NCBI RefSeq assembly: GCF_004010195.1
Contig: NC_057718.1
Coordinates: 75,798,275 to 75,823,943 of the forward strand
Direction: 5' to 3'
Length of the DNA: 25,669 bases
Origin: Chiloscyllium plagiosum
Taxonomy: Eukaryota
Made by a program: the position numbers and the translations under genes. Shown here one piece after another: positions 1 through 24,275 of this stretch; within the stretch, counting starts at the first letter, position 1; every line of letters starts with the position of its first letter. A model generated the notes under the pieces. That model did no database searches. It was given only the letters and a program-made list of their open reading frames with translations, and was not told the origin of the DNA.

Positions 1-366
1 ACCCATGGCAATCCTCCAAATGTCTGTGTTCAAAACCAATACTTTTTCCCCCACAAGCTGAGTCATGTGATCTTCTCTAAGCATGTTGCAGACTCAGTCT
101 CCATCCAAGTAGTTTGCTCTTAACAAAATATAAAATTGTTGCTGTTGCAGTTCATGTCTTTTGCTTTGCAAAGTTTTCTTTTCAAGATAACTTCACAATA
201 TATATCTAACCAATGACGTTATAAATGAATATTTTAGGCAGTAGATTTCATAATAGTACCATATCTCAATAAATAACTTTAGCAGCTTTAGACCTTCACC
301 CAAAAACTGTAAACCCAAAAATCATGTTTTGTACTTCCCACTAGTGAAAACTGGAAGGCAGTAACA

Positions 367-653
367 GGGCAGCGCGGTGGCTCAGTGGTTAGCACTGCTG
401 CCTCACAGGGACCCAGGTTCAAGTCCCACCTCGAACACCTGTCTGTGTGGAGTTTGCACATTCTTCTGTATCTGTGTGGGTTTCCTCCCACAATCCAAAG
501 ATGTGCAGGTCAGGTGAATTGGCAATGCTAAATTGCCCATAGTGTTAGGTGCTTTAGTCAGGGGTAAATATAGGGTTGGGGAATGGGTAACTCTTCGGAG
601 GGTCGGTGTGACTGAAGGGCCTGTTCCCATACTGTAGGGGATCTAATCTAATC
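367..653 (+). mobile_element. HE1-like tRNA-derived V-SINE
   Basis: A-box GGTGGCTCAGTGG, B-box GGTTCAAGTCC, V-domain TGTGTGGAGTTTGCACATTC, (AATCT)n tail. Lacks one GGTTTCCTC-bounded unit that is present in the 21954 copy. Confidence 0.92.
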
Positions 654-1254
654 ATTTTAACATGTACAGCTGCCTTCTCGAATCATGGATATGCAGAATA
701 CAACTCAACCCATTCCACCCTTCTCCTCCCACTCTTTCCCGCCTTCTGATTGTAAATGGTGGCTGCCAGGACCTCTGGATCAGGGCTCCAACACCATTTC
801 AGCCACACTCTCTGTGAAACAAAATTATAAAACTCCAGGTCAGCAAGTTTGTTATACACCTTGGCCTTTCCATCATTTCCCAGTTCTTATTTCTCCACCT
901 ATATTGGGCGCATGTTTACTTTCACTAATGTCTTATTTATATATGAATAGAAATATTAACAATGTCATTTTACATCTATTACTCACTTACTTTCATATTC
1001 TGTTTCCTGATTCTGCTTTACTGAATTCTAAATTCTCCTAATATTCAGGCATACTGCACGTTTTTACAACATTACAAGCCTTTTGATGTGATATATATTT
1101 AATTCCTCTTGTGGGCCTGCTTGGTACATTATTTGTGCCTTAAAAGATTGCATACTTGTTGTAAATTATGCATTAAACCTTTCAATACCATTTCTTTCCC
1201 ACCATCATAGATTTTAATGTAGTCTCAAGAACTACTGGAATCAACTGGCCTATT

Positions 1255-1700
1255 AAACATAAAAAGGGAGCAGGAATAGCTCATTGCATCTTGAGTTTGG
1301 TCTATCATTCAGTAAAATCATGATTGATTTGACTATGGCCTGAACTTCACTTTCTTGCCCACTTCTCATAACATTTGACTCCCTTGTCAAACCCTGGCTT
1401 CAGTCTTAACTAAATAACATTCAAACTCAAAATAAGATGCTATGTCATATTATGGTCACTCTTTCCTAGAAGCTTCTTTACTAAACAGTTATTAATTAAC
1501 TCTTTTTCCATTGTACAACTTGGTATATACCATGCATCATCCTCCCCACTATTACTTTGAATTTAGTTTGCCCAGCTTATTTGAAAGTTGAAATCCTCTA
1601 TTATCACTATAATGTTTTTGTTGTACTCTTCAAATTCAAATTCTACACTTTAACTACTATCAAACTTCCTTTAAGCAACACCTACTAATGCCTTCTGCAT
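1255..1700 (-). mobile_element. Old CR1-type LINE fragments (3' tail plus endonuclease-region remnant)
   Basis: 1255-1400 resembles the CR1 tail at 22657 (GGAGCAGGAATAG...CATTCAGTAAAATCATGATTGAT). Minus-strand DHNM- and DFN-like remnants at ~1445-1460 and ~1585-1600. Confidence 0.6.
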
Positions 1701-1730
1701 CTAGATTTAATAGTTTTGTCCTTTATATTT

Positions 1731-1744
1731 GGGGGGGGGGGGGG
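1731..1744. repeat. Poly-G tract (G14)
   Basis: Read directly. Confidence 0.95.
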
Positions 1745-1873
1745 TCATGTCTACATTAAGCCCATAGAATCTTAGATTTGAATACTTCCTGATGATTGTC
1801 ACTGACTTTCCCTCATGTATCTGTATCCGGCCCACTTTTGCCACATCAACTGTCAGCTTTGCACAGCTTGCCA

Positions 1874-1971
1874 CAGTGGTGCTGGAAAAGCACATCAGGT
1901 CAGGTAGCATCCGAGGAGCAGGAAAATAGATGTTTTGGGCAAGAGCCCTTCATCAGGAAGGGCTCCTGCTC
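1874..1971 (-). mobile_element. Penelope-type terminal mini-element (collapsed palindrome) with degenerate minimal hammerhead motif
   Basis: Similar to the left arm of 20507-20723. Minus strand 1956-1929 reads CTGATGA-A-GGGC-TCTT-GCCC-AAAA-C-ATC. Confidence 0.75.
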
Positions 1972-2012
1972 TTCATTTTCTAAGACTAATCTTCATTTTC
2001 TAAGACTGAATC
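1970..2012. repeat. 20-bp tandem duplication (TCTTCATTTTCTAAGACT x2)
   Basis: Read directly, immediately after the mini-element. Confidence 0.85.
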
Positions 2013-2029
2013 TAGAATCGTACCCTTTC

Positions 2030-3900
2030 TTGTTGGACTTGTTATGTAAGTTAAAAAATTTCTCTTGAAACTTTTAACAATGGTGCATTTTTTTGTACAT
2101 GTCACACTGTTTCTATACCAATTGACATTTGAGGAATTGACATCCACAATTTTAATTGCCTATTAAAATTTGCCAACATAATAGTTCCTCTCTCTTCCAC
2201 TATTTAGTGAGTTTATCATATGTACCGAGCAGTGTGGCTACTCCTTTTTGTTTCTGAGCTGACCCCAATGGCGTCATTTGATGTTTCATTTAGTATATCA
2301 TCCCTCTTCACAGCTGTGATTGGTTCCTTAACTGATAATGTTACACCCCTCACCTTTTTCATACTCATCTCCAACTTGCCTGAAAACTATATCCAAGGAT
2401 GTTTACCAATGATATCATGCTACCATGTGTCTATCTGTCCTGTTAACTCATCAGCTGTATTTGCTTAATCGTGTTTCTACATATATACCTATTAATACTG
2501 CCAAATCCAAGTGCATTCCACTTATTTAAACTCTGCTTCCTCTGTCTTTCAGCATGATTTACCAGATTTATGCCTCCCTATTAGCTGGTCTAAATTTGTC
2601 CTCGGATTCCCATGCCCTTGCCAACTTAATTTAAACCCTCCACAACTGCCCAAGAAAAATTTCCTTGCAAGGATCTTTATCTCAGTCCTGTTCGGGTGTA
2701 GGCCATCCATCATATACAGGTCTCATGTTCCTTAGAACCAGTCTCAATGCTCCAGAAATCTAATGTTCTCCCTCCTTTACCACTTTTCCAGTCACACGTT
2801 CAATTGTTCAATTCTCAATTATTATGCTCCCCCACACATAGGGCTGGGAATAATCCTGAAACTACTGTTCTAGAGATCTTGCCTTTAAATTTCCTACCTA
2901 GCTTCCTGAAACTTGCTTACAAGGCTCATCCCCGTTGCTACCTCAGTCATTGGTACAAACATGGTCCACAATATCTGGTTGTTCACCTATTCCCAGAAGA
3001 ATTTCCTACAGCCACTCTATAACGTCCTTTACCTTGGTGCTAGAGAGGCAACATACTGTCCAAGAGTCTTTTTAGAATAGAATTGAATCCCTACAGGACA
3101 GAAACAGGCCATTCAGCCCAACAGTCCACACCGACCCTCCGAAGAGAGTCCCACCCAGACACATCCCCCCACCCTATTCCTGTAACTCTGCATTTCCATT
3201 GGATAAGGCACCTAACCTACACATCCTTGAACACACTACATTTAGCACCTCAGTTGGCCTGACCTGCTCATCTTTGGACAGTGGGAGGAAACCTGAACAC
3301 CCAGGGGAAACCTATGCGGACACAGGGAGAATGTGCAATCTCTACACAGGCAGTCACCTGCAGGTAGAATTGAACCTGGGTTCCTGGTGCTGTGAGGGAG
3401 CAGTGCTAACCAGCAGGCCATCACTTGTTCTGTTTGTAATGTTGATATTTTGCAGAAATGCCTTCCTGACCCCCTAAGTGTGGAAAAACCAGTCACTATT
3501 GCTGTTCCATTCTTCTTCCTCACCTCCAACTCTGTACAACTGAGGAACCAGTGATGCCACTGACATGACTCTAGCTGCTCTCACCTGAGAAAACATACCT
3601 CTCACCGGTATCCAAAATGGAATACAGATTGCCAAGCAAGATAGACTCAAGAAGCTCCTTCAATACCTGTCTGAATTTTTAGACAGCCTGCCTGTCACCC
3701 ATTCCCTTTTTCCCCTTATGCTTCTAAGCTGAGGTGTGACCTCATCCCTAAATGTGCTATCCACGTAGTTAGCTGCTTTTAATGGATGCACAAATGTGAC
3801 TCCAGAAGCGACGTGAGTTTTGTAACCTTGAATCCAAGTTTGCTCAGTCAATGACACTTCCTGCAACTGTGTTTGTCCTGTGCTGAGTCCACAACTTCAT
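2030..3900 (-). mobile_element. Decayed CR1 LINE 5' half (ORF1 with SGNH-esterase-like domain plus ORF2 endonuclease start), split by a SINE
   Basis: Minus-strand peptides resembling CR1 ORF1: YVDSTFRDEVTPQ..EWVT, AIVTGFSTLRG, VCCL..TKVKDV, EQPDIVDHVCTND, DLYMMDGLHPN. Multiple stops and frameshifts. Confidence 0.8.
3074..3425 (-). mobile_element. HE1-like V-SINE (older copy) nested in CR1 ORF1
   Basis: Reverse complement of the A/B boxes, V-domain and (ATTCT)n-like tail. The CR1 ORF1 motifs resume on both sides. Confidence 0.9.
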
Positions 3901-3944
3901 TCAATCACAGGATGAGTATTCCCCACCCCCAAACTTCAAAAACA

Positions 3945-4580
3945 GGCTCTTTGGTCAGCCAAGTCTGTGTCAACACATGATGCCTTTCTAAACTAAAAAC
4001 TGTTTCCTCTATGTATCTCTCTATTCCCATTCTATCCATGTGTCTGTCAAGATGCCTTAAAAATGCTGTTATTGCATCTGCCTCCAATCCTCCGGCAGCA
4101 CACTCAAGGCACCAGTCTCTGAGCAAAAAAATTAGATTAGATTACTTACAGTGTGGAAACAGGCCCTTCGGCCCAACAAGTCCACACCGACCCACGACCC
4201 ACCCCCCTACATTTACCCCTTCATCTAACACTACGGGCAATTTAGCATGGCCAATTCACCTAACCTGCACATCTTTAGATTGTGGGAGGAAACCAGAGCA
4301 CCTGGAGGAAACCCACACAGACACCGGAGAATGTGTAAACTCCACACCGATAGTCGCCTGAGGCGGGATTTGAACCCGGGTCTCTGGTGCTGTGAGGCAG
4401 CAGTGCTAACCACTGTGCCACTGTGCTGCCCCAAAATTGCCTCTCACATTTCCTTGAAACTTACTCCCTTCTACCTTAAACATATGTCCCCTAGTAACTG
4501 ACATTCCTACCTTAGAAAAAAAGACTCCAAGTATCCATTCTATCCATTCCTCTCACAATTTTGTAAACATCTATCAGGTT
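3945..4580 (-). mobile_element. CR1 LINE 3' end, split by a SINE
   Basis: Peptide EADAITAFLRHLDRHM matches the CR1 ORF2 C-terminus. The element continues after 4432 and is similar to 7250-7634. Confidence 0.8.
4132..4431 (-). mobile_element. HE1-like V-SINE, near full length
   Basis: Minus strand starts GGGCAGCACAGTGGCACAGTGGTTAGC, has B-box GGTTCAAATCC and ends in (AATCT)n. AAAATT on both flanks is a possible TSD. Confidence 0.93.
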
Positions 4581-4594
4581 ATTAGTACCCTATT

Positions 4595-4631
4595 GTATGT
4601 AGTATATATATGTGTGTGTGTATATATACAT
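4595..4631. repeat. Compound (TA)n/(TG)n microsatellite
   Basis: TATATATATGTGTGTGTGTATATATACA. Confidence 0.85.
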
Positions 4632-4714
4632 GCCACTTACTCTAAAAAATTAATTATACAGCTCATCTCAGTCCATTTTTTCTGCCACCAAACACCTCCA
4701 TCTTCAATCATCTA

Positions 4715-6865
4715 AATCATAACAATGCATTGGCAATTATGGTCTTTCATCCTGCCATGTGTACAATTTTCAAATTGAATGGCTGCTATAATGAGCTCCA
4801 TCTAAATAACCTGGAATTTTATCCTTAAACATTTCCAAAAACTTTTAGAGGTTATGATCAGTACATATAATTGTCTCAGATGCATTATTGGCAACAGAAA
4901 TGTTTAAATGTTGCAACGCAAACACCAAACTCAAGGTCATCTTCTCAATTGTGGAATATTTCTGTTGATGAATATTCAACATTTTGGAAAAAATACCCAA
5001 CATGTCTTTCTATCTTCTCATTGTTGTCTTGCAAGAGTACAGCATCTACATCCACAACACCCCATCATTAACCACCTTGAATGGCTTTGCATACTTAGGT
5101 GTGGTTAACATTGGGGCAGTGGCTAACATAGCTTATAGATTGTCAAACATATTCTGACATTCCCCTGTCCACTGAAATTTTCTCCACTTCTTTAACAGGT
5201 CAGTCAGTGGATCAACAACACTGTTAAAATTCAGTACAAATTTTCAATAAAAACCACCCAGTCCCAAGAATCGTAATGCTTCCCTCTTCATCAGTGGTAT
5301 GGGAAACTCCCCAATAAATTTTGTTTTCATGTCCCATGAAGCCATTTGCCTGTGGCCCAGGAACATGACTTGGGATTTTGTCAACTCACTCTTAGGCCAG
5401 GTTTATCACTAAGCTCTCCTTCCAAAGTCATTCGAACAATTCTGATAGGTGCTCCACATGATCCTTTCATGTGTGACTAAAAATCACTAAATCATCTATG
5501 TACATAATACAACTGGATAATCCTGAAATAATTTTATTGATTAGTATTTGAAATAAAGCTGGCATATTCTTCATACCAAACAGCATGACTTTAAAGTGGT
5601 ACAGTCTATTCAGTGCGATGAAAGCTGAAATGTCCTTTGTTCTTTGAGATACAAGTACCTGCCAATATGCTCTGAGAAGTCCAATTTAAAATATAAGTTG
5701 TATGTCCCACCTTCTCAATACAGGCTTCCAAACATGGAATAGGACATGAGTCAAATTTTGTGACTTTGTGATAATCCACAAATAATTGTTGGGTACCACC
5801 TGGTTTTGCCACCATTAGTACGGGTGAGCTCCATTCATTGCAACTCACTTCAATTAAGATAATCTCTTTTTTCTGTGCTGTATATCTCTACGCCTCTATG
5901 ACTCTTTTTGAACCAGTGCAAACTTCAGAAAATTAAGTCTATAAGCATGTTGTTTAATTGGAACAGCATTTCCTCTATCTCCATCATGCATAATCAGAGT
6001 AGTACTTTTCCTACATATCTCCCCATGTGATTGTAATTACTCTTTCTGGTCATTTTGATTTTCCTCTGGAATTTAATTCAAAAATGTATTCTGATATTTA
6101 AGAATTTCCTCATTGCCCATTTTAATTTGAGAAATGTCCAATTCAGAATCATCTGAATTTAGTTTTTCACTCTGTCTTGTAACCAGTAACACATTCTCCT
6201 TTTGCTTTCCTTTCCTCTCAAAATACCTTTGAACATATTGACATGATACACCCTGTGAGATTTCTTTCCATCTGATGTTCTTAAATTCCCTTTGATTTGA
6301 CAAGGCCCACTAAACCTTGCCTTCAAAGGTTCATCTACCACTAACACTTTATCTCACTAGCAAAATGGTGAATTTTTAATTTCTTGTCTGCTTCCTGTTT
6401 CACTTCATACTTTCAAATGTTGTCTAGCCAGCTTGCCCACTCTATTTAATCTTTATCTAAAATTTGGCACACAATCCAAATATGTAGTCTCCCAACTTGA
6501 CTCACCAATTTCTCTTTAACTATTTTCAGTGGTCCTCTTATCTCATGCCCCAAAAAAATTGAAATGGGCTGAATTTAGTTGATTCATTCCATGTATTCCT
6601 AACTACAAAAGTACAAATGAAATTCCTTTATCCCAATCCTCTGGATGGTCTTGACTATAAGCCCTCAACATGGCCTTTAAAGTTTGATGCCACTGTTCAA
6701 ATACTCCTGTGATTCTCGATGGTACGCAGTGGATTTTATTTGTTTTATTCCCAAGTTATCCATAACTTCCTTGAATAGTTTTGATGTAAAATTTGATCCT
6801 TGATCTGATTATATTCCTGTGAATAGTCTGTATCTAGTAAAACTTGAGTAACGCTTCTACAATCC
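4715..6865 (-). mobile_element. Decayed Ty3/Gypsy pol with Gmr1-type order (integrase, RT, RNase H)
   Basis: Minus-strand order: IN core SDQGSNFTS..AYHRESQ..WHQTLKAML..WDKG (from 6808); IN C-terminus ARFSGP..VYHVNM; RT WSSPVLMVAKP, VDY, FKVMLFGMKNMPALFQ, YIDD (5502-5491); RNase H YSTIEK..LVFALQHF, TDHN, RLFRW. Many stops and frameshifts. Confidence 0.92.
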
Positions 6866-7655
6866 TTATTTTACTAAACAGCAACTGTTCCAATATGATA
6901 ACATCACATTAACACACCCTTGGCAAAGGCAAATTCAGTAAAATAGATTGTCTCACATGCAATTCTCCAATCCAGGAAGAATAAACATCAAAAGAAAACA
7001 GAGAGAGAAAGAGAAAACTCAAACATTCTGCTATAGTATGGAGAGATGTATAGCAGCTTCCATAGTTAGCTTCAAGACTCTAACAATTACTAAAAGTTAA
7101 GCTAAATCCTGGTTCTGTGGGAGCCTAACCCCATCCCTTCATGGTGCTTCTGTTGCTCTAACTTTTAAAAACAACTGAAGTTAGCTTAGCTCAGAGCAGA
7201 TAGTTTGGCTCCAAGAAATATGGTGGAACAAATCTTCCTTAAAGGCATATAGAGTCATAGAATCATAGAGATGTACAGCACGGAAACAGACCCTTCAGTC
7301 CAACTCGTCCATGCCAACCAGATAGCCCTACCCAATCTAGTCCCATCTGCCAGCACCCGGCCCATATCCCTCAAAACCCTTCCTATTCATATACCCATCC
7401 AGATGCCTTTTAAATGTTGCAATTGTATTAGCCTTCAACACTTCCTCTGGCAGCTCATTCCATGCATGTTCCACCCTATACGTGAAAAAGTTGCCCCTTA
7501 CATCTCTGTTATATCTTTTTTGTCTCACCCTAAACCTATGCTCTCTAGTTCTGAACCCCCTACCCCAGGGAAAAGACTTTGTCTATTTATCCTATCCATG
7601 CCCCTCATGAATTTATAAACCTCTATAAAGATCATATCTTGTAAAAACAGTCACA
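6866..7655 (-). mobile_element. Probable truncated 5' LTR of the Gmr1-like element, interrupted by CR1 (7250-7634)
   Basis: Non-coding, abuts the integrase remnant. The minus strand would begin TGTGAC at 7655 and continue ATGCCTTTAAG after the CR1. No partner LTR is present to confirm it. Confidence 0.5.
7250..7634 (-). mobile_element. 5'-truncated CR1 LINE 3' end
   Basis: ORF 7337-7528 RDVRGNFFTYRVEHAWNELPEEVLKANTIATFKRHLDGYM is a classic CR1 C-terminus. Has a (CTATGATT)-like tail. Confidence 0.93.
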
Positions 7656-7832
7656 GCCTCCTGTACCTGACCATTGACCAGCTCAAAATTCTACTTAGCT
7701 GAAGTGGTGTGACTGCCTCATGGAGTGTACTGCCCATTCAGCAACTTCGAGTTGAAGTTCCTCAAGCCACAGACCCAGATATAATTTATCTGGTTTAAAT
7801 GTCTGCATCTTGAGGAATTTCAATGATGCTAT

Positions 7833-8290
7833 GTGGTGGAATAGTGATAACATCACTGGTCTAATAACTTAACAGAATATTCTGGACATTAAGTTCTGCT
7901 GTTAACTCTGAAATGTTAACTCTGTTTTCTCTCTATCAATGCTACAAGACAAGGTGTGTTTCTCCAGCACTCTCCGCTTTTGTTTAATCCTCTAGGGACT
8001 GGGTTTGAATCCCTCCAAGGCAGATCAAGTTTGAATTCAATAAATATCTGGAATTATAAATTAGCCTAGTGGTGACCACGTACCCACCGTTGATTGCTGT
8101 AAAACCCAATCTGATTCATTAATGACCTTTACAGAAGAAAATCTGTCATTCTTCCTGATTTAGCTTCATGTGACTCCCAACCCAAGGAAATGTAGTTGCC
8201 TCTTAACTGTCCTGTAGGTAATTAGGGATGGATAATGAATGCTGGCTCAGCAAGGGACATCCACATTTTGTAAACTGATAAAACAAAAAC
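7833..8290 (+). mobile_element. Old tRNA-derived SINE with LINE-shared tail, interrupted at ~7890-7985
   Basis: Degenerate A-box GTGGAATAGTG and B-box GGTTTGAATCC. Tail TAGGGATGGATAATGAATGCTGGC...GACATCCACAT matches the LINE tails at 23270-23320 and 18540-18600. Confidence 0.7.
7890..7985 (+). mobile_element. Penelope-type terminal fragment
   Basis: TGAAATGTTAACTCTGTTTTCTCTC...TCTCCAGCACTCTCCGCTTTTGTTT resembles the reverse complement of 8780-8881. Confidence 0.55.
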
Positions 8291-8529: not shown

Positions 8530-8615
8530 AACAATTTAGACAAGCAGGAGGCTGGAAGAACATGGCAAGCCAGGTAGCATCAGGAGGTAGAGATGTTTTG
8601 GGTATAACCCTTCCT
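8530..8615 (-). mobile_element. Penelope-type terminal fragment with degenerate hammerhead stem II
   Basis: GCTGGAAGAACATGGCAAGCCAGGTAGCATC resembles 1880-1910 and 20555-20585. Minus strand has GGGT-TAT-ACCC-AAAA-C-ATC. Confidence 0.6.
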
Positions 8616-8779
8616 CTGACATGACTGCCAGTCTAGTGCTTTTCCATTACTACAAAACTGACCATAAAAACAATAGAGGGATATTCAACTCAATGCTAAT
8701 GGTAGGGAAGAAGAATTTTTACTGTTATGTGATGACAAGGAATTCCCTAATCAGTATGTTTCCTCTGCAATAACGAAGG

Positions 8780-11530: not shown

Positions 11531-12523
11531 CTTGTCTGTATGCTTGATCGTTGTAATGTAATGTTTTGTACAATCATAGCAAGAAAATGATTTACTTGTG
11601 TTGAGAATCATACTTGTAAGAAATAAACATATATACAAAGTACTAAACCCAATTCACACAGCGAGTGACATTCAATTGAACCTGCAAGAGTGGGACGCAC
11701 TGTGTAAGAGGTGATGGAATTTGGAAGGAAGAGATGCAGATTAAGATAGTGGTGTGTTTTGTTCCATTAGAGGCCTCATGCCAGCCTGTAGCAGTTTCCC
11801 ACTTGTGATATGTTTGCTTGCCATGAATATAAATTCACATAAAACTTTTTAAGCTTATGATTGACCTTCAAGATAAGGTTATTGATACGCAAGAATCTCA
11901 TGGTGCCCACTTCAGGTCCATGGAAAAGTGACTTAACTGTCACTTTTGAGCAGTTGTGTCTGAGGTCTGTAGTTTTCCTTGTTGAATTCTGAAGCACAAG
12001 AAAGGGGAGCAGAAGAAAAGCAATTTGGCTGGAGGGTCAGGACTGCTAAGTCAGTAGTTAAGGGGGTGGTTGTGAAATGGAGTTGGGGGAGTGGAAGACT
12101 GGAGAGTGAAAGAAGGAAGAGCGTGACATCTGGGTGTGTTGGTTGTTGATGGGAACACAATCAGTCAAGGTAAGAAAATGCATGGCAAAACAGCAGTGTC
12201 AATACTGTTCACATGCGACAGAGTGCTTACAGAATTTTGAGTTCAACTACAACAACTTAATTATCTCTGTTGAGAGTGATTGCAGGCATTGCCCTTTACA
12301 GTGCATACAAGGGAGAGTGTGCTGAGCCTGCAATTTTAGTCAAGCCCCCAAAGAGTAACAATATAACACTGGATAGTAACATGAACATTCAACAGAGAGA
12401 ATTCAAAAACATACACTTTCTTCCACAACAATGAAATGTCCTTGCCTCAGACTCAGTTAAAAGTCAACTGGGTAATCAAGGAAAGTTGGTTTTCTTCCTT
12501 GAAGGAGATAAACGAACCAAATA

Positions 12524-12619
12524 CCTCTCCCTGAACAACTCCAGGGTGTTGGTGGACACCGCGTGCTCCTTCTCCAAGGACACCCCGGCCCTAACGTAAC
12601 CGCGGAAGAGGGGCAGGCA
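12524..12619 (-). mobile_element. 96-bp fragment resembling the L1/Tx1-clade ORF2 C-terminus
   Basis: Open frame CLPLFRGYVRAGVSLEKEHAVSTNTLELFRER. GC-rich with several intact CpGs, unlike the flanks. Confidence 0.7.
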
Positions 12620-12808
12620 TGAAGTAGGTTCTTATTCTTGACACATCCTTTATGCACAGCACTGAAGACAGGGAAGAGCAGATGGTACTAATCAGGAGAA
12701 ACTGTTTCCTAAAGACCTCAGGCGCATCGACCAGATAGCAGTCCTCAAAACTCATAGAGGTGAAGGGCAAATTCATCCCAAATTGCCAGGGATAATTCAA
12801 TCATGATA

Positions 12809-13026
12809 CAGACAGCCCCCCCAAATTGCAAACAGGTTCTGTTCTGGAATCCGCTTGGAAGTTGATTTTTATCCAAGTTGGAAGATAATGCAGGACAATA
12901 TAAAGAAACCATTCATAAGTAGACAAAATGATTGTAGGTTGGATGTTTAAAATTACCCCTTTGTTAAATCATGCTCAGGAGTGTGAGCATTTGTAAACCA
13001 GGTGTTCATAATTTGAAGAACCTTTG
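12809..13026. mobile_element. Degenerate Tc1/mariner-pogo (Tigger-like) MITE
   Basis: TA on both sides (12807-8, 13027-8). Decayed TIRs: CAGACAGCCCCCCCAAATTGCAAAC versus reverse complement CAAAGGTTCTTCAAATTATGAAC. Internal TTCATAA/TTGTAA repeats. Confidence 0.5.
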
Positions 13027-13269
13027 TATGTTAATTAAAGTCTATTAATTGGACTGTCAGAATCTTGAGTAGCTGCTTCTCCAATCACAGGCTGTTGCTC
13101 TTCTTCAGCAATAAAGAAGGGAGAGCAACAGCTTGTGATTGGAGAAGTGGTGAGAGGGTGTTTGATGGTATGAAGTGGTTACAGCTGTGTTGGGGGAGGG
13201 AATGGAGGAGAAAGAAAGGAAAAAAAAAAGTGGGAGAAGAGAGTGAAAGGCAAGGTGCAATTGAGAAAG

Positions 13270-13400
13270 AGATAGAACATTACAGCTTAGTGCAGGCCCT
13301 TTGACCCTTGATGTTGCACTGACCTGTTATACCAATCTGAAGCCCATCTAACCTACACTATTCCATATACTTGTCCAATGATGACTTAAATGTACTTAAA
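13270..13400 (-). mobile_element. Short CR1 3' tail fragment within a GA-rich tract
   Basis: CCAATCTGAAGCCCATCTAACC is the reverse complement of the tail at 18146-18167. Confidence 0.85.
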
Positions 13401-14422
13401 GAGAGGGAGGTTTCAAGGAAGGGGGGCTAAAATTATTCAAGGGGACAGAGAGACACTGCAAGATGGAAAGGTGATAGTCTGAAAAGCAAGGGGGTTTGAG
13501 GGAAGGAGCTTCACATGGAGTAGTTGTTGGGAGAGAGGTATATTAGAGAGGGAGATAGTAAGAGGGGGAGAGGAGTGAGGCTGCAAATGGGATGAGCAAA
13601 AGAACACTGCAAAGGAGACACAGCAGTTTTAAACCTGCAAACAAAGGTCTCCTCAGTTAACTAGGTGCCAGTTAGTCTCAATCTCTAGGATGGGTGACTT
13701 CTTCACAAAGTAATGTGAAATCTTTAGCTCAAGGCTGTATATGTTCAGAAACTACTGTATGGTAGTAAAGCATAGTGAATGAACATTGTCTCAATTGTTA
13801 ACAATTGAGATTGAGCTCTGGAATGCAATGATAAAGGTTGGAACTGCCTGGTTGAAATCTTCCAACTTTGGGTATATGCCATGGAAGCATTGGCTGGGAT
13901 CTCTCCCAATCTCCCAAAGTGTGTTCAAGGTGATTGGGTTTTGTGTGTAGATGTTTGTGTCAGTAACTTGGAAAAAAGTGCCATTTACACATTGTCTTGG
14001 GCAAATGTAAATGCAATGGTGCATAATAAATGTTTCATTAGTGTGTCTTGAGTTTTCAATGGTGAGGTAATCCTTATTAAATATATTTGGAAAGTGATAA
14101 AGCTTGATTACAGAGAGAAAGGTAGTCCCACAACTGTTCTCTGGTCCAAAAGGTTAGTATTTATTGGTATGTTGTGGTACGCTATTTGAGAGGATATAAT
14201 TAGGGTGGGAACCCTTGGCTTAAGGGTCTGGTGTTGGATTCTGCTGCTGTTACAGTTCTTCCTTGAGCAAAATAATAATGTTGTTTCAGAACCAACTGCA
14301 TCTCCGTGTGGAGGTAATTCTTGCATGATGAAATTCCTGTTCCCATTTCCATCTGGAAATTAGTACTTAAGTTGAATGTACAGGAGACAATATCAGAGCT
14401 ACAGGCAAGAACAACTTGAATG

Positions 14423-14596
14423 ATCCAAAGATGTGCAGGTCAGGTAAATTGGTCATGCTAAATTGTCCATAGTGTTGGTGCATTAGTCAGGGGTAAATAG
14501 AGTATGGGAATGGGTCTGGGCGGGTTACTCTTCAGAGGGGCGGTGTGGACTTGAGCTGAAGGGTCTGTTTCCATAGTGTAGGTAATCTAATCTAAT
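14423..14596 (+). mobile_element. 5'-truncated HE1-like SINE
   Basis: Matches the 3' half of the 367 and 21954 copies; (AATCT)n tail. Confidence 0.92.
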
Positions 14597-15239
14597 ACTT
14601 TAAGTCCAAGAAAGTTTTTTTATTTTTCATTGGGATCCATATAACTGCTGTGTGTGAATTTTAAGTTTTGTTTTTTGCTTTTTATCTGTTGCCCTGTGAC
14701 TACAGTGAGGAGAATTTTCAGTGGTGAAATTTCCCATCTGCAGATAATGCAGCAAGTAGGTGTAGGCTGTAAAAGAGCATCCTGAACAAACAGGGATGCT
14801 CTGTCATGGCCACAACTTTCCTGCCCAGTTCCATTACCATTAACCTAAGACCTCTTCAGAACGCAAAGGTGGCATAGATCTTCAGATGTAAATTTTAACG
14901 GAATTTTTTTAAAATCCTACCTCACTCAAGTGTACATCATTTGTTGAGACTTGCTTAGTCAAAACGAAATGTTCCAGCGTATTTCATATTTGCAGATGTT
15001 TCTTGATACCATGTGGATTGAATTGCATAGAGGGACCTGTGATGCTGGGGACTTCAGAGGTGGCCAGAATGGAACTTGATACTTGTAAATTGAGTATTAC
15101 TGAAAAAGGGGCCCTTTGTGTTGTTATGTATTTCCAATGTAAGTAGCACAATTTACAACTTTCAACTGGTTGTCAGCATATTTTGTTTGGCATGCTCAGA
15201 ATTGTTTAGCAAATCTTATGCAGTCGCAGAATCACACCC

Positions 15240-15530
15240 AATGTTGGATGCTGTTTTGTGAAAGTGTGACATCAGTATCTGATTCATTCCTCAGAACAAC
15301 AACTTGACCATTCAGAGTTAACCTGCCTGGTTTAAATCTAAACAAAATGCTTGGCAGATAACTGTCAGTTATCATCAACCTGGAACATTTGCCATGACCA
15401 TCATCAATTTGCTAACTAATCAGCACTCTTTTATATTATGAAATATTGATCCTCTTTATAGTGGCATTCTTGTGAAAATCCTAATGAGTGCAAGATATAA
15501 CATTTTTCAGACCTTTTCCTGCGATACTCA
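15240..15530 (+). mobile_element. Possible old Penelope-like 3' region
   Basis: Ends in ATTCTTGTGAAAATCCTAATGAGTGCAAGAT, resembling a decayed CTGATGA-GTGCAAGAC-GAAA motif. Highly diverged. Confidence 0.4.
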
Positions 15531-15829
15531 GATTAGAAAATTGTTAGATATAAAAACAAGTATTTTGGGTGACTGGCAGCCATGAATCAATGAACAAGGG
15601 TAAATGAGAGCCTGACTTGAGTAGATGTTTGGCCATGAAAATGGCTAAATTATATTGCTATTGAGATTATTGGGAACAGATGATCTGATGGTATTTCCAG
15701 ATATATGGCAAGCCAGATCTGATGACCCTATTGAACCCCCTCCAGTAGATGTAAAAAATCCAATGGTATAGTCCTGGGCTGTAATTATTCCATCTTGGCT
15801 AAAAAGGAGTGTCGTTTACGAAGGACATT

Positions 15830-18210
15830 GAATCTCTTGTTGAGAAGGAGGTTTATGTTAGGATGAGATGCAAAGGCTCAGTTAGTGATTGAGTGTTACA
15901 AGGTAGCCAGGAAAGACCTAAGACAAGTGAGGAGAGGGACATGAGAAGTTGTTGGTGGATAGGATCAGGGAAAACTGTAAAGCTTTCTATAGCACGAATT
16001 GAGGCCAGTCGTGGGAAGTTGCGTATGGAGTCAGAGGAGATAGGGAAAATGCTAAATGAATGTCTTTTTCATGTGAATACTGATGAAAAATAATGTTGTT
16101 GAGAAGAATACTGAGAGGCTACCAAACTAGATGGGATTGAGGTTCACAAGGAGGAAGTGTTAGAAATTCTGACAAGTGTGAAAATAGAAAAATCCCCTGG
16201 GCAGGATGGGATTTATCCTAGGATTCTCTGGGAAGCCAGGGAGGAGATTGAGGAGCCTTTGGCTTTGATCTTTGTCATCATTGTCTACAGGAATGATACC
16301 AGAAGACTGGAGGATATCAAATGTTGTTCCCTTCTTCAAGAAGGGGGGTAGAGACAATCCTGGTAATTATAGACCAGTGAGCCTTACTTCTGTTGTTGGT
16401 AAAGTGTTGGAAAAGTTTATTAGAGAGGATTTATAATCATCTAGAGAGGAATAAGTTGATTAGTCAACATGGTTTTGTGAAGGGTATGTCATGCCTCACA
16501 AACCTATTGAATTCTGAGAAGGTGACCAAACGGGGATGAGGTTAAAGACTTTGTGGTATATATGGATTTCAGTAAGGCATTTGATAAGGTTCCCCATGGT
16601 AGGTTACTGCACAAAATGCAGAGGCATAGGATTGAAGGTGATTTAGCAGCCAACAAAAATTGGCTAGTTGAAAGGAGACAGGGTGGTGGTTGATGGGAAA
16701 TTTTCATCCCGGAGTTCAGTTATTAGTGGTGTACTACAAGGATTTGTAGGATGGGATTTATCCTAGGATTCTCTGGGAAGCCAGGGAGGAGATTGAGGAG
16801 CCTTTGGCTTTGATCTTTGTCATCATTGTCTACAGGAATGATACCAGAAGACTGGAGGATATCAAATGTTGTTCCCTTCTTCAAGAAGGGGAGTAGAGGC
16901 AATCCTGGTAATTATAGACCAGTGAGCCTTACTTCTGTTGTTGGTAAAGTGTTGGAAAAGGTTATTAGAGAGGATTTAGAAAGGAATAAGTTGATTAGGG
17001 ATAGTCAACACGGTTTTGTGAAGGGTATGTCATGCCTCACAAACCTATTGAATTCTGAGAAGGTGACCAAATGGGGATGAGGTTAAAGACTTTGTGGTAT
17101 ATATGGATTTCAGTAAGGCATTTGATAAGGTTCCCCATGGTAGGTTACTGCACAAAATGCAGAGGCATAGGATTGAAGGTGATTTAGAAGCCAACAAAAA
17201 TTGGCTAGTTGAAAGGAGATAGGGTGGTGGTTGATGGGAAATTTTCATCCCAGAGTTCAGTTATTAGTGGTGTACTACAAGGATTTGTTATGGGTCCACT
17301 GCTGTTTGTAATTTTTATAAATGACCAGGATGAGCGTGTAGGAGAATGGTTTAATAAATTTGCAGATGACACTAAAGTCAGTAGAGTTGTGGATTGTGAC
17401 GAAGAATGTTATAGGTTACCGAGGGATAAAGATGAGCTAGGCTGAGGTGGCAAATTGAGTTTAATGCAGAAAAGTATGAAATGATTCACGTTGGAAGGAG
17501 TAACAGGAATGCAGAGTACTGGGTGAATGGTAAGACTCTTGGTTGTGTAGATGAACAGAGATACCTTGGTGTCCATGTACATAGATCTCTCAAAGTTGCC
17601 ACCCAAGTTGATAGGGCTGTTAAGAAGGCCTATGGTGTGTTAGCTTTTATTAGTAAAGGGATTGAGTTTTGGAACCATGAAGTCGTGCTGCAGCTGTACA
17701 AAACTCTGGTGTGGCCACACTTGGAGTATTGCGTACAGTTCTGTTCACTACATTATAGGAAGGATGTGGAAGCTTTGAAAAAGGTTCAGAGGAGATTTAC
17801 TAGGATGTTGCCCAGTATGGAGGGAAGGTCTTATGAGGAAAGTTGGAGGGACTTGAGGCTGTTTTTTTGTTAGAGAAGAAAGTTGAGAGGTGATTTAATT
17901 GAGACATATAAGATAATTTGAGTTAGATCAGGTGGACAGTGAGCCTTTTTCCTCTGGTGATGTCTATCATGAGGGAGCAAAGCTTCAAATTGAGGGGCGA
18001 TAGATATAGGACAGATGCCAGAGGTAGTTTCTTTACTCGTAGTAGGGGAATGGAATCCACTGCCTGCAACAGTTGTAGATTTGCCAATTTTAAGGGCATT
18101 TAAATGGTCATTGGATAGGCATATGGATGAGAATGGAATAGTGTCGGTTAGATGGGCTTCAGATTGGTGCATAATTGAGGGTTGAAGGGCCTTACTGTGC
18201 TGTTTTCTTT
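15830..18210 (+). mobile_element. CR1 LINE ORF2 (RT) pseudogene with internal tandem duplication
   Basis: KSPGQDGIYPRIL, PGNYRPVSLTSVVGKVLE, SQHGFVKG.SCLTNL, DFSKAFDKVPH, QG..MGPLLF.IFIND, KFADDTK, LYKTLV.PHLEYCVQF, then 3' tail. Frameshifted. Confidence 0.97.
16203..17288 (+). repeat. Direct tandem duplication (545 bp plus 541 bp)
   Basis: Unit 1 is 16203-16747 and unit 2 is 16748-17288. About 9 substitutions, plus 10-bp and 6-bp indels, by eye. Confidence 0.95.
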
Positions 18211-18354
18211 TATGAGAACAGACACATTCATCAATTGGATGATTCATGGTTATCTGTCCAAAAAGCCATTTTTCTCAAATCGCTTTATAGCTAATAGGCA
18301 GAAATGTTCAAACAACTTTTTTTTTGTTGGGGGGAAAAAACTTCAAAATAAGTA

Positions 18355-18495
18355 AAACAGATTAATGTTTGATTTATCTCTCTTTTTGTGAGACCTTACC
18401 ATACACACAACAATAGTGATGTTACAAAAGCACAGCATTGACTATAAATCACTGCTACTATCTAATATTGTGAAAGGTACTATTAAAATGCATGA
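18355..18495 (+). mobile_element. Old Deu-domain/SacSINE-like 3' portion
   Basis: ACAGATT...TTTGTGAGACCTT...ACAATAGTGA...TGTGAAAGGTACTATTAAAATGCA. A possible upstream Deu-like piece GTAGATGTAAAAAATCCAATGG lies at ~15745-15766. Confidence 0.45.
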
Positions 18496-18534
18496 TACCC
18501 GCCCACCCTCTCCCCTCTGATCCTGGATCATGTT

Positions 18535-19060
18535 TCTTTTTATTCTTCTGTGGGATGTGAGTGCTACTGGAGGGAGAGCATTTGTTGTCTGTGCCTGGTG
18601 ATTCATTGCATTGTCAATGGCCATTGTTTTGAACAACTGCAATCTGTCTGATGTAAGCACAAACACAATGCTATGAGGAGGAGAGTTCTAAAGGTTCTGA
18701 CAGTGAAGGAATAGTGAGACAGTTCCAAGTGAGGATGATGTGCAATTTGGAGAGGAACTTGCAAATGTGGCATTCCCATATGTCTACTACCCTCATCCTT
18801 CCAGGTGGTAGAGATAGCTGGTTGGAAAGTGCTTTTGAACAGGTTTGATGAATTATTCTAGCACAACTTGCATATGACACACTGTTGCCAATTTGTGGCC
18901 TTGACAGAGAGAGCAGGTATTTAAGGTTGTGTATATTGTGCCAATTAATTGGGCTGCTTTATCTTGTATGATTCAAGTTTCTTCAGTATTGTTGGAGCTG
19001 CACCCATCCATATAAGGAGTATTCCATCACGCTCCTGAACCTGTGCCTTGTAGATGGGGA
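18535..19060 (-). mobile_element. CR1/L2-group LINE 3' end
   Basis: Minus-strand IYKAQV-RSVMEYS...AAPTILKKL..IQDKAA remnants. Same family as 22350-23325. Confidence 0.8.
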
Positions 19061-20397
19061 GACAGGAGATGGGTTTTTTGGCAGACTTTTGTGAAACAGG
19101 AAGACCTGTTGGTTTCTTTTGAATTCCATTTTCTCCATGACACTCACATAGGAGGAATTTGGGCTGAAGGATGTTTTATCCTGTTCTCCCTTTGCTTGAA
19201 AAATAAAATGTGACAAATAATCAGCAGGACACCAACAGTCTCCCTGCAATCTCTTACAGATATGTGAATACTCAGTCTCTACACAATAATTCCAATTGTA
19301 TTGTTATGACCTTCTGACCAGCATTGAACTCTAAGTTACAGGCTTGGAGTATCTTCACTTTATCTTGCTTTCCTCTTATTTTACCACTTATGCAAGGCTT
19401 AAACAGACTAGACCTGGTCTTCAGTGTGTTTAAATATTAAGTTATAAGGTAGCAACCTGTTTGGGGTTTTCTGCTTGAGACCAAAAAGTTGTTTTGTTTT
19501 TAAGGAAAACATGAACATTACCGGTTAGCCTGACACCTTAGAAATATGTCTGCAAAGATACCTTTCCAATCTACACTTATTTCTACAGCACCATTCAATG
19601 GTGGATGATATGTTGGTACAAGGCTGTCTTGACTACATTCAAACTCAATTTTGTCAAATTCTCTGTGGACTATTTATCTAAGCATGTGTACCAGACCTTT
19701 CAGAGCATGCAGAGTATCCCTGACCAGACCATTGTATCAAGGAGCACTGACATTTTAGTTAATGATACTGTACTGTGTCACAGCCTGATAAGAGTTCAAA
19801 AACAAGGCCAGTATATTGTTGGAAGTGATCAACAGCAAATGGTAATACCATTATCATCAGACAAGGCATGCAACAAGAGATAGCAAAAGATATGTTGACT
19901 TAATACAAGTTTTCAACTCCTATTTTAGTTTAGGGTCAAACTACTTCATAGTCCAGCCAAATTTAATCAGTGCAACAAAAAAAGGGAGAATCAATTCTTT
20001 CATAAATGACATGTACCATCTGATTAATTGCCAACATGGGCCTTTGAAAATTCTGATAGAGCTTCTTCCAATAAACCCACGACAATGTGGTATCATATGA
20101 TTTTATCTTTCAGGCTAAGGAAGGCTTTATTGCTAAAAGCAGTGCAATTCACCAGGAAGGCTGAACTTTTAAAACAAAGCAAACATTTTATCTGTGGAAA
20201 TTGTTATGAAGGTATAGGGGTGTACTGCACCTTTGAGAGTTGAAAAGTGAGCAAGGACTGACAAAGCACAAAGTCCTGAACAAGGTATCAGTGTAACACT
20301 TGATTGAAAGAAATAGCAGCAGCTGGGTTGCCATGAAACAAAAAAACAAATTCAAATTTGGCCAACCAGTTTAAATTATGCTCCAAGATACCAAAAT

Positions 20398-20470
20398 CCA
20401 ATCAAATTTGAATTTAGTATTTTGATGGTATTAAAACCAATGGAATAATCCAATGTTTTGGGGTATAAAA
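20398..20470 (+). promoter_or_regulatory. Putative LTR U3 promoter (3 CCAAT boxes plus TATA box)
   Basis: CCAAT at 20398, 20437 and 20450; TATAAAA at 20464-20470. Activity not demonstrated. Confidence 0.55.
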
Positions 20471-20506
20471 GCAGACATTTTGAACAACTGGGGATAACTG
20501 TCACAG

Positions 20507-20723
20507 GAAAAAATGAGGACTGCGGATGCTGGAGATCAGAGCTGAAAATGTGTTGCTGGAAAAGCACAGCAGGTCAGGCAGCATCCAAGAAAGAGGAGAA
20601 TCGACGTTTTGGGCATGAGCCCTTCACCCCTTCCTGAAGAAGGGCTCATGCCCGAAACGTCGATTCTCCTGCTCCTTGGATACTGCCTGACATGCTATGC
20701 TTTTCCAGCAACACATTTTCAGC
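20507..20723. mobile_element. Palindromic Penelope-type non-autonomous mini-element with 13-bp TSD
   Basis: Inverted arms 20541-20625 and 20639-20723. ATAACTGTCACAG at 20494-20506 and 20725-20737. Confidence 0.88.
20631..20665 (+). ncRNA. Minimal type I hammerhead ribozyme-like motif
   Basis: CTGAAGA (20634-40), A, stem II GGGC-TCAT-GCCC, GAAA (20654-57), C-GTC. No helix III loop, as in Penelope minimal hammerheads. Helix I is only about 2 bp here. Confidence 0.6.
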
Positions 20724-21384
20724 AATAACTGTCACAGACCAGTAAATGTAGACTGTTAGCTGAAGAGCTCTCTGAAAGGCACCTGTCTGTGGGGAGTGTG
20801 CAGCAGAACATAAAGGATAATCTGGTGAGAATCTACAAAGGAGAATTGGCAGAGCTGACTGTTTTTGGAAACTTGATTTCTTTTTTGTAAATCTTAATCA
20901 GGATTTTCTTTTAAATCAGACTAGTATTGTAGAGTGGAAGGTAAAAGATATAAGTTTAAGAAAAAGGAGTTGTAATTAATTGTTTATCTTAATATTTTCT
21001 GGATTTAAAGAATAAAGTTGTTAACTTTTACTTTAAATAGTAACCTCTGGGATTGTTCTTTTGCATCTCAAATTTTAACAGATTCCAGCAATCTTTTCTA
21101 AGAGGCTGGTTTAAATTAGCAGAGGGGTTTACCCCATTTCTTAACAAAATAGAAATTTCCCTGGTACCAGACCACTAGCCCTGGCTTGGTTCAGTTTGTT
21201 AGTGAGAGGGCTGCCCACCCATCGGTAAGACAACAGTCCCATAGGAAGAGGGGCTTTTTTTGGTCTGCATTGTGGCAAGTTGATGCCAACCAATCCCAAC
21301 CACCAATCTATGCTATAAGAAAGTCCACTTTCAGATACTTTGCTGAAGGAGCAATGAGAGATTTCCAGTTGTGATGTTAAAGTA

Positions 21385-21953: not shown

Positions 21954-22273
21954 GCAGCACGGTGGCTCAGTGGTTAGCACTGCTGCCTCATAGCACCAGG
22001 GTCCTGGGTTCAATTCCTGCCTGTCTGTGTGGAGTTTGCACATTCTCCCTATGTCTGCGTGGGTTTCCTCAGGGTGCTCCGGTTTCCTCCCACAATCCAA
22101 AGATGTGCAGGTCAGGTGAATTGGCCATGCTAAATTGCCCACACTGTTAAGTGTGTTAGTCAGTGGTAAATATAGGGTAGGGGATTGGGTTTGGGTGGGT
22201 TTCTCTTCGGAGGGTCAGTGTGGACGTGTTGGGCCGAAGGGCCTGTTTCCACACTGTAGAGAATCTAATCTAA
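21954..22273 (+). mobile_element. HE1-like V-SINE, near full length
   Basis: A-box GGTGGCTCAGTGG, B-box GGTTCAATTCC, complete V-domain and (AATCT)n tail. Confidence 0.95.
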
Positions 22274-23329: not shown

Positions 23330-24275
23330 AATTAAGGACATGAACAGATTAAGTATTTGGGTAAAATAATGATAAATTAAACTGAATGTTGAGAATTGCT
23401 AATTTTGGGAATAAGAAAGACAAGCTAAGTATTATGTAAATATTGAGGAACTAGGAACCACAGAGAAACAAAGATATGGGAGCTCAGAACATAAATTATT
23501 TAAAGTTAATAAATGGGTAGACATGGAATTAATGGGCGAGTAGAATGTTGACTATTATCTTATAAAGGCTGGAATTTGATGGGCAAGATGGTATCTATTA
23601 GTTTGATTATATTGGTCATCTCCCAGCTAGAGTAGGATTAGAATTCCTACAGTGTGGAAACAGGCCCTTTGGCCCAACAAGTCCACACTGACCCTCCAAA
23701 GAGTGCTGTGTTCAGTTTGGAACACCACAATTCAGGAAGAGAATAGTTTCTATTGAAGTCCAAATTCGCCAGAAATAAACCAGGGCAGAGCAGTTTAAAA
23801 TTTGAGGACAGCTTGTATGGATTTTGTTTATATTTCCATGAATAAAAAGAGATATCTGAAATCCCAAGGGTTAAATTGCATATTCTCTGGAATTTTGAGG
23901 GTTGTGTGGTGATTTGGTTAAAATTTCCAAGATATTGAAGAGAGATGATAATGTGATAAAGAGAAATTATTTGTGCTAGTTGAGGGCGTAAAGGGTAATA
24001 GTCATGATTGGCATATTTCTGCCAGACATTTTAGGGGTAAAATTCACACAAAGGGTAGTAGAAGTTTGGAGCTCTCTTCTGTGAATGCAATTCTGTTAAG
24101 TGAATTGCTAATGTTAAATCTAAGATTGATAGTTTTTTTTGTCAACCAAATGTCCTAATGGATATGGGACAAAGTAGGCTATATGATGTTAGGTGACAGA
24201 TCAGCCATGATTGCAAAGAATGGCGGAACAGCCTTGAGAGGCCAAATAACTTACTCCAGTTCCAATGTTTCAATG
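23330..24275 (+). mobile_element. Old CR1 ORF2 C-terminal region and 3' tail
   Basis: CAGCTAGAGT..CTGTGTTCAGTTTGG (LEYCVQF-like), FTQRVVEVWSSL remnant, tail GATCAGCCATGAT..GAATGGCGGAACAG. Confidence 0.75.
23636..23704 (-). mobile_element. HE1-like SINE 3' tail fragment nested in CR1
   Basis: Matches 4136-4190 and the reverse complement of 22203-22270. AGAGT is present at both junctions. Confidence 0.88.

Follow-up and report, generated by a model that had tools for sequence, protein, structure and literature searches.

We propose that a 218-bp insert at positions 20507-20724 of the window analysed here, a stretch of 25,669 nucleotides from Chiloscyllium plagiosum, arose, with high probability, when the RT/GIY-YIG protein of a Penelope-like element (PLE) of the endonuclease-positive class inserted a copy that was dead on arrival and reduced to two terminal modules. 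That the insert consists of inserted PLE end modules we hold to be very probable, and, given this, we lean slightly towards two separate priming events as the way in which it was built. Most likely, then, it is an ordinary PLE stub rather than a mobile element of a novel type. The earlier note had viewed it as a non-autonomous, ribozyme-bearing unit moved by Penelope-like machinery; the machinery finds support in our analysis, the self-propagating unit and the working hammerhead do not. The features of the insert and of its relatives in the window are as follows.

20494-20506, plus strand: left target-site duplication (TSD), 13 bp, 100% identical to 20725-20737
20507-20540, minus strand: 34-bp one-sided extension, the PLE "tail", absent from the right arm and of a size that fits a 30-40-bp tail
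20541-20626, minus strand: inverted pLTR-end copy, truncated within the hammerhead core (CUGA missing; AAAA in place of GAAA)
20627-20723, plus strand: direct pLTR-end copy lacking the tail and starting 7 nt upstream of the core
20634-20661, plus strand: minimal type I hammerhead core with a 4-bp helix II and a 2-bp helix I and no helix III
20724, plus strand: single extra A, absent from the other arm and from the left flank (read from the sequence)
20725-20737, plus strand: right TSD, 13 bp, identical to the left one
1876-1972, minus strand: second copy of the family, one arm with a short stub folded back over about 13 bp; 87 nt (1876-1962) align at 85% identity
8551-8616, minus strand: third relative, old and decayed, 72% over 74 nt, E=0.015

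The TSD, ATAACTGTCACAG, is indeed perfect, its two repeats being identical, and the chance of a repeated 13-mer within 40x40 positions is about 4e-5; the length between the repeats is 218 bp and not the 217 bp first given. The inverted arms of about 85 bp described earlier were likewise recovered (20541-20625 and 20639-20723, 85 nt each and 92% complementary, with seven mismatches), as was the extension of about 34 bp (20507-20540), which is found on the left arm only. The insert folds with a z-score of -18.7, and none of 200 shuffles was equally stable. Because of its high depth and shared variants in the read data, the stretch 20507-20540 is family sequence and not flank. Since reads of the family align as far as 20505 (376 loose ends in run X21), the last two bases of the left TSD may be microhomology with the end of the tail, and the extra A at 20724 is, judging from the letters themselves, probably untemplated.

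This anatomy, together with the evidence from other animals presented below, argues against a DNA-transposon MITE with long inverted repeats and a chance hammerhead match. Such an element would account for the long inverted repeat and the high abundance of the family, but the two ends of the insert are not mutual inverted repeats, the 34 bp at the left end having no mirror, so that terminal inverted repeats do not extend to both ends. Moreover, single-arm copies of the family exist, the centres are variable, the motif has a chance expectation of 0.007 per window, and the same motif follows GIY-YIG ORFs elsewhere. We therefore regard a MITE as highly improbable, and the preference of the earlier note for Penelope-like mobilisation is upheld by the tail on one arm, the long TSD, the variable centres and the position of the core after GIY-YIG ORFs in other loci.

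The window itself yielded no PLE ORF in a tblastn comparison with six PLE frames (no match at E<=1), and a Pfam search of 13 window frames recovered one RVT_1 fragment (16814-17077) and no GIY-YIG domain. A 40-residue peptide from the tail frame had no match among longer proteins; its five matches among representative proteins were dismissed as artefacts, all being tandem-repeat proteins without RT or GIY-YIG domains. In metagenomes, a generic pattern derived from the 20634-20661 core matched at least 120 loci; these are evidently animal host DNA, since one of them (L054) encodes a 7TM receptor. Among the matches listed, 95 loci were eligible (at least 250 nt upstream, six duplicates dropped, with four Pfam-hit frames as queries), and in 24 of these a GIY-YIG-like ORF lies upstream on the same strand, a count that includes the four query loci and in which some loci may represent one family or locus twice. 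The distance from the end of this ORF to the core is 72-184 nt, with one case at 544, in these 24 loci among the matches listed. The Pfam GIY-YIG domain (PF01541) was detected in four of the 11 metagenome frames tested, in two of them above the curated cut-off. Helix I, which lay outside the search pattern, has at least 3 bp in 79 of the 114 metagenome motifs listed, against a shuffle mean of 6.1, and an inverted copy occurs within 400 nt in 27 of the 97 loci listed that have room on both sides (22 without duplicates). Four loci (L010, L014, L026 and L098) are ORF-less palindromes of 217-259 bp with TSDs of 12-14 bp and a one-sided extension of 44-53 bp; matches of 8-9 bp were disregarded as TSDs, the TSD search having been run without a shuffle control. 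As the arms of these palindromes are 80-93% identical to ORF-linked copies, the architecture of the 218-bp element is a routine PLE by-product in other animals.

The metagenome families and the 218-bp element have only the core of about 28 nt in common, and the metagenome evidence for a PLE link of the present family is therefore one of analogy. Patterns specific to the family had no match in the viral, metagenome and prokaryote collections, nor did blastn of the plasmid collection with the family sequence return any. The generic core was also found at three loci in viral contigs, which are not PLE-like and were excluded from the counts; in one of these (L122:5001-5028) the core resembles a hammerhead and has a helix I of 4 bp together with the triplet AUA.

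In light of these observations, we posit that the PLE protein would have cut the target with a 13-nt stagger (the TSD is observed, whereas the cutter is deduced), and that both 3' ends would then have served as primers for reverse transcription of uncut RNA containing the pLTR, with a start on the left that takes in the 34-nt tail and a start on the right that leaves it out. Synthesis of both cDNAs would have ended at the hammerhead or shortly beyond it, and the two would have been joined head to head at the junction that is observed, leaving near-identical arms that would have decayed separately, with the hammerhead as a passenger of the pLTR. We infer the priming steps from this anatomy and from what has been seen in vitro with PAc, an element of the anole. 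Read from the outside inward, both strands open with antisense sequence, one at the end of the tail and the other 34 nt further in, and starts spaced in this way match the two RT start sites and the two-strand extension of PAc. Furthermore, each arm has sequence that is missing from the other, namely the tail on the left and the 5' part of the core on the right, so that neither can simply have been copied from its partner, as fits two primings at one staggered cut. Against this, a later deletion at the tip of the hairpin could mimic the pattern, and a 5' boundary that recurs before the core is not expected from random truncation and also fits a short dedicated template.

An alternative that retains the PLE origin is that a single cDNA snapped back at the CCCUUC/GAAGGG mini-hairpin and served as its own template, with resolution by the endonuclease and a later deletion accounting for the tail and the uneven centre. 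For head-to-head PLE repeats, self-priming has been proposed in earlier work (PMC3846280), and the mini-hairpin is predicted at 20628-20644, where it overlaps and would compete with the hammerhead core. Two further copies look like snap-back products: that at 1876-1972, which folds back exactly at the same CCCTTC/GAAGGG mini-hairpin overlapping the core, and L014, whose palindromic centre is perfect. A search for a TSD around 1876-1972 found none. In the 218-bp element, however, the arm with the tail falls short of the other at the centre and has T at core position 7, where the other arm has A, and a simple snap-back from either arm thus calls for a further deletion as well as a point change. 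We take self-priming to be a genuine possibility but not the probable one, and retain two primings as our preferred reading.

The read data were examined by aligning four runs on 20150-21050 at 85% likeness. Three DNA-type runs from two organisms gave 80,299, 78,903 and 86,239 aligning contigs, to which the flanking repeats contribute, and the summed depth, which is not a copy number, is 1e6-2e7 across the arms versus 10-25 at 20150-20180. The family is very abundant in the genome. Of the 15 joints listed among 661, 13 lie within the element and lead from points at 20552-20596 in the left arm to the right arm, with the right-arm boundary at 20631-20632 in eight of the 13; none of the 13 falls at 20662, immediately 3' of the predicted cut. 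In each run, 414-824 records have loose ends before 20631, with low agreement (0.34-0.48). Based on these joints and loose ends, other copies are likewise head to head, with differing centres and a sense arm that often begins just before the core. Among the 40 of 127 difference rows listed, six of the seven differences between the arms are cases in which one arm departs from the majority of the family, the left arm in three and the right arm in three, and a minority loop variant is common to both arms (20617 and 20647), consistent with arms that were near-identical at insertion and decayed later. A contig from the second organism (run X13) matches 20725-20861 with three differences and has 38 letters unaligned leftward, a hint of an empty site.

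The recurrent boundary before the core also bears on the template, which may have been full-length PLE RNA or a short pLTR-derived RNA, either of which it allows. Under the latter alternative, a SINE-like RNA of about 130 nt, spanning from just before the hammerhead to the tail and transcribed from master loci, would be moved in trans by the PLE protein, with the palindrome still being built at insertion. The frequency of the boundary before 20631 (the loose-end records given above) speaks for it; vertebrate non-autonomous repeats derived from pLTRs have also been proposed (bioRxiv 10.64898/2026.07.22.740005), and pLTRs in cis are described as sufficient for mobilisation in trans (PMC3846280). 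Conversely, the loose-end consensus holds about 13 common letters upstream in all four runs, and part of the family therefore extends further 5'. Position 20631 may, moreover, partly mark where the window copy departs from the consensus, and short and ORF-linked metagenome copies have the same pLTR. A dedicated short template is a tentative alternative to full-length PLE mRNA.

The turnaround of the hairpin does carry a minimal hammerhead core, as the earlier note had recognised: on the plus strand, 20634-20661 reads CUGAAGA (20634-40), A, GGGC/UCAU/GCCC (20642-53), GAAA, CG and UC, with a predicted cut site after 20661. It is the sole match of the minimal hammerhead descriptor on either strand of the window, compared with 0.007 matches per window over 1000 shuffles, while the search against hammerhead models proposed alongside that observation gave no match to the element with the Rfam models at E<=1. 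The element agrees with the published min-HHR descriptor (PMC4209133 supplement) in CUGANGA followed by an optional N, in a helix II of 3-7 bp with a loop of 3-10 nt and in GAAANNUH, and departs from it in helix I, for which 3-7 bp are specified and only 2 bp (C-G and U-A, followed by U-U) are present. Both caveats raised at the outset, a helix I of only about 2 bp and sequestration of the core by the long hairpin, are borne out, the latter by a helix II probability of 0.0 when the entire insert is folded. With only the sense arm folded, helix II forms (0.8) and helix I does not (0.008), and cofolding of two sense arms did not produce a dimer hammerhead. The inverted arm is no dimer partner because it supplies the complement only, breaks off within the core and no longer reads GAAA. 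Given the 2-bp helix I, the burial of helix II in the hairpin and a second arm whose core is cut and mutated, the ribozyme of this copy is probably idle, to go by the predicted folds. The insert retains the core and 7 nt upstream of it, and the template RNA was therefore uncut. No pile-up of RNA read ends was listed, the poly(A) single-cell library being a poor test of cleavage, and in PAc hammerhead mutants insert normally and cleavage requires the protein (PMC11167929). The claim of a functional ribozyme-bearing core thus finds no support, as helix I fails the published descriptor and the copy was made from uncut RNA.

The same observations bear on whether the 218-bp hairpin as a whole propagates itself as a ribozyme-bearing unit with active dimer cleavage in its cycle, which we consider very improbable. 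In the right arm all core nucleotides and three CpGs are intact, and 3,217 RNA reads of the family were recovered, on both strands. Yet 98% of these reads continue into unlike sequence and hence come from other loci. Only one of the four family arms in the window has an intact core, the core being broken in both other relatives (1876-1962 and 8551-8616; CUGAUGA is present in the copy at 1876-1972, but GAAA and GUC are broken), and low age could explain this single intact core, which we infer would require no selection at a decay of about 4% per arm. The 2-bp helix I compares with at least 3 bp in 79 of the 114 related motifs listed, neither helix II in the full insert nor a dimer hammerhead in the two-arm cofold was predicted, and an inverted arm yields on the same RNA a complement and not a second ribozyme. 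The earlier idea of a unit propagating as such is not supported, as other copies differ in arm lengths and centres; the arrangement is that of published PLE insertions after extreme 5' truncation.

The surrounding DNA is repeat-rich and of vertebrate type. The flanks of the insert (20181-20490 and 20738-21048) are repeated genome-wide, with a summed depth of up to 1e5, and the stub thus sits inside an older repeat; the left flank also has a 22-bp inverted repeat (20339-20360/20403-20424). The RVT_1 fragment at 16814-17077 lies with a 545-bp tandem duplication of 95% identity (16203-17288) within an RT-bearing LINE fragment, and the RT-bearing pieces of the window are presumably of the CR1 type. 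A SINE-like repeat of about 300 bp occurs in six copies of 70-90% identity (367-660, 3078-3412, 4125-4431, 14423-14603, 21954-22273 and 23628-23704), which we take to be HE1-like SINEs. A hairpin at 13069-13154 with a 36-bp stem has a weak match to MIR7533, far below the gathering score, and no hammerhead core was seen in it. GC skew is opposite over long stretches, at about -0.2 in 1-8000 and up to +0.4 in 12000-19000.

Being the decayed remnant of a retroelement whose class is known, the single locus carries little weight. The family is of modest weight, since its stubs resemble MITEs or miRNA hairpins and are easily misannotated as such. Its very many young copies, however, provide junctions that can test the origin of head-to-head PLE repeats and of the one-sided tail, which the published work, as far as covered here, leaves open. 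We offer, as a speculative and on present evidence rather unlikely generalisation, that these stubs might constitute a genome-scale record of PLE integration in which both ends of one staggered cut would prime on separate RNAs, one per subunit of a dimeric RT-endonuclease, with two RT start sites giving rise to the one-sided tail and with both cDNAs halting either at a hammerhead that is still uncut or where a short, dedicated, SINE-like pLTR RNA, amplified to very high copy number, has its 5' end. If this is true, two primings would take the place of antisense self-priming as the proposed origin of head-to-head PLE repeats, and the hammerhead would serve as a boundary signal more than as a cutter.

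Among known systems, the insert comes closest to the insertion unit of the endonuclease-positive PLEs (Penelope/Poseidon, Neptune and Naiad; PMC3846280, PMC8557442, PMC2377424). An inverted pLTR, a one-sided tail and a TSD are described in rotifer, Drosophila and Naiad elements (PMC3846280, PMC2377424, PMC8557442, PMC8969392); the rotifer unit has an inverted pLTR, an optional 31-bp tail and a TSD of 8-10 bp (PMC3846280), a tail of 30-40 bp at one end is reported in PMC8557442, and a 34-bp repeat in D. virilis (PMC2377424). With these elements the insert shares direct and adjacent head-to-head inverted pLTR ends, a 30-40-bp one-sided tail, a variable TSD and strong 5' truncation, and it has an adjacent, head-to-head, 5'-truncated inverted pLTR, a 34-bp tail on one side and a hammerhead in the pLTR. 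Its TSD, to be compared with their variable lengths, is a perfect 13 bp at a single locus, as against 8-10 bp in the rotifer cases, and it differs further in being only 218 bp long without ORF sequence, with arms of only 85-97 bp. The minimal hammerheads of pLTRs are mostly solo motifs from truncated PLEs, with pairs on opposite strands 100-700 bp apart (PMC4209133). The present core resembles them in CUGANGA, an extra nucleotide before helix II, a G-C closing pair, GAAA, a palindromic CG replacing helix III and a UH cut site, but has a 2-bp helix I, as against 3-7 bp in the descriptor, and a helix II of 4 bp; for D. virilis, too, a helix I of 2 bp has been reported. A search of supplement file 2 of PMC4209133 listed no shark entry, and the literature covered, which took in few subscription papers, contained no description of this family in sharks nor of twin priming for PLEs; the family may well be catalogued already in repeat databases.

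The non-LTR retrozymes (bioRxiv 10.64898/2026.07.22.740005) are likewise non-coding, pLTR-derived and equipped with a type I hammerhead, and are present in a cartilaginous fish, and the cartilaginous-fish families of that work could include the present one. Retrozymes, however, are head-to-tail tandems with a complete hammerhead in each unit, whereas the 218-bp element is a head-to-head pair with a single complete core. The Poseidon element PAc of Anolis carolinensis nicks both strands of its target and extends each of them; its tail is bounded by two RT start sites, and its template is uncut RNA (PMC11167929). Although the PAc ORF begins in the hammerhead and no matching ORF start was found in the 218-bp element, the two share a hammerhead about 120 nt upstream of the end of the tail, a tail that behaves as an optional extension, and insertion from uncut RNA.
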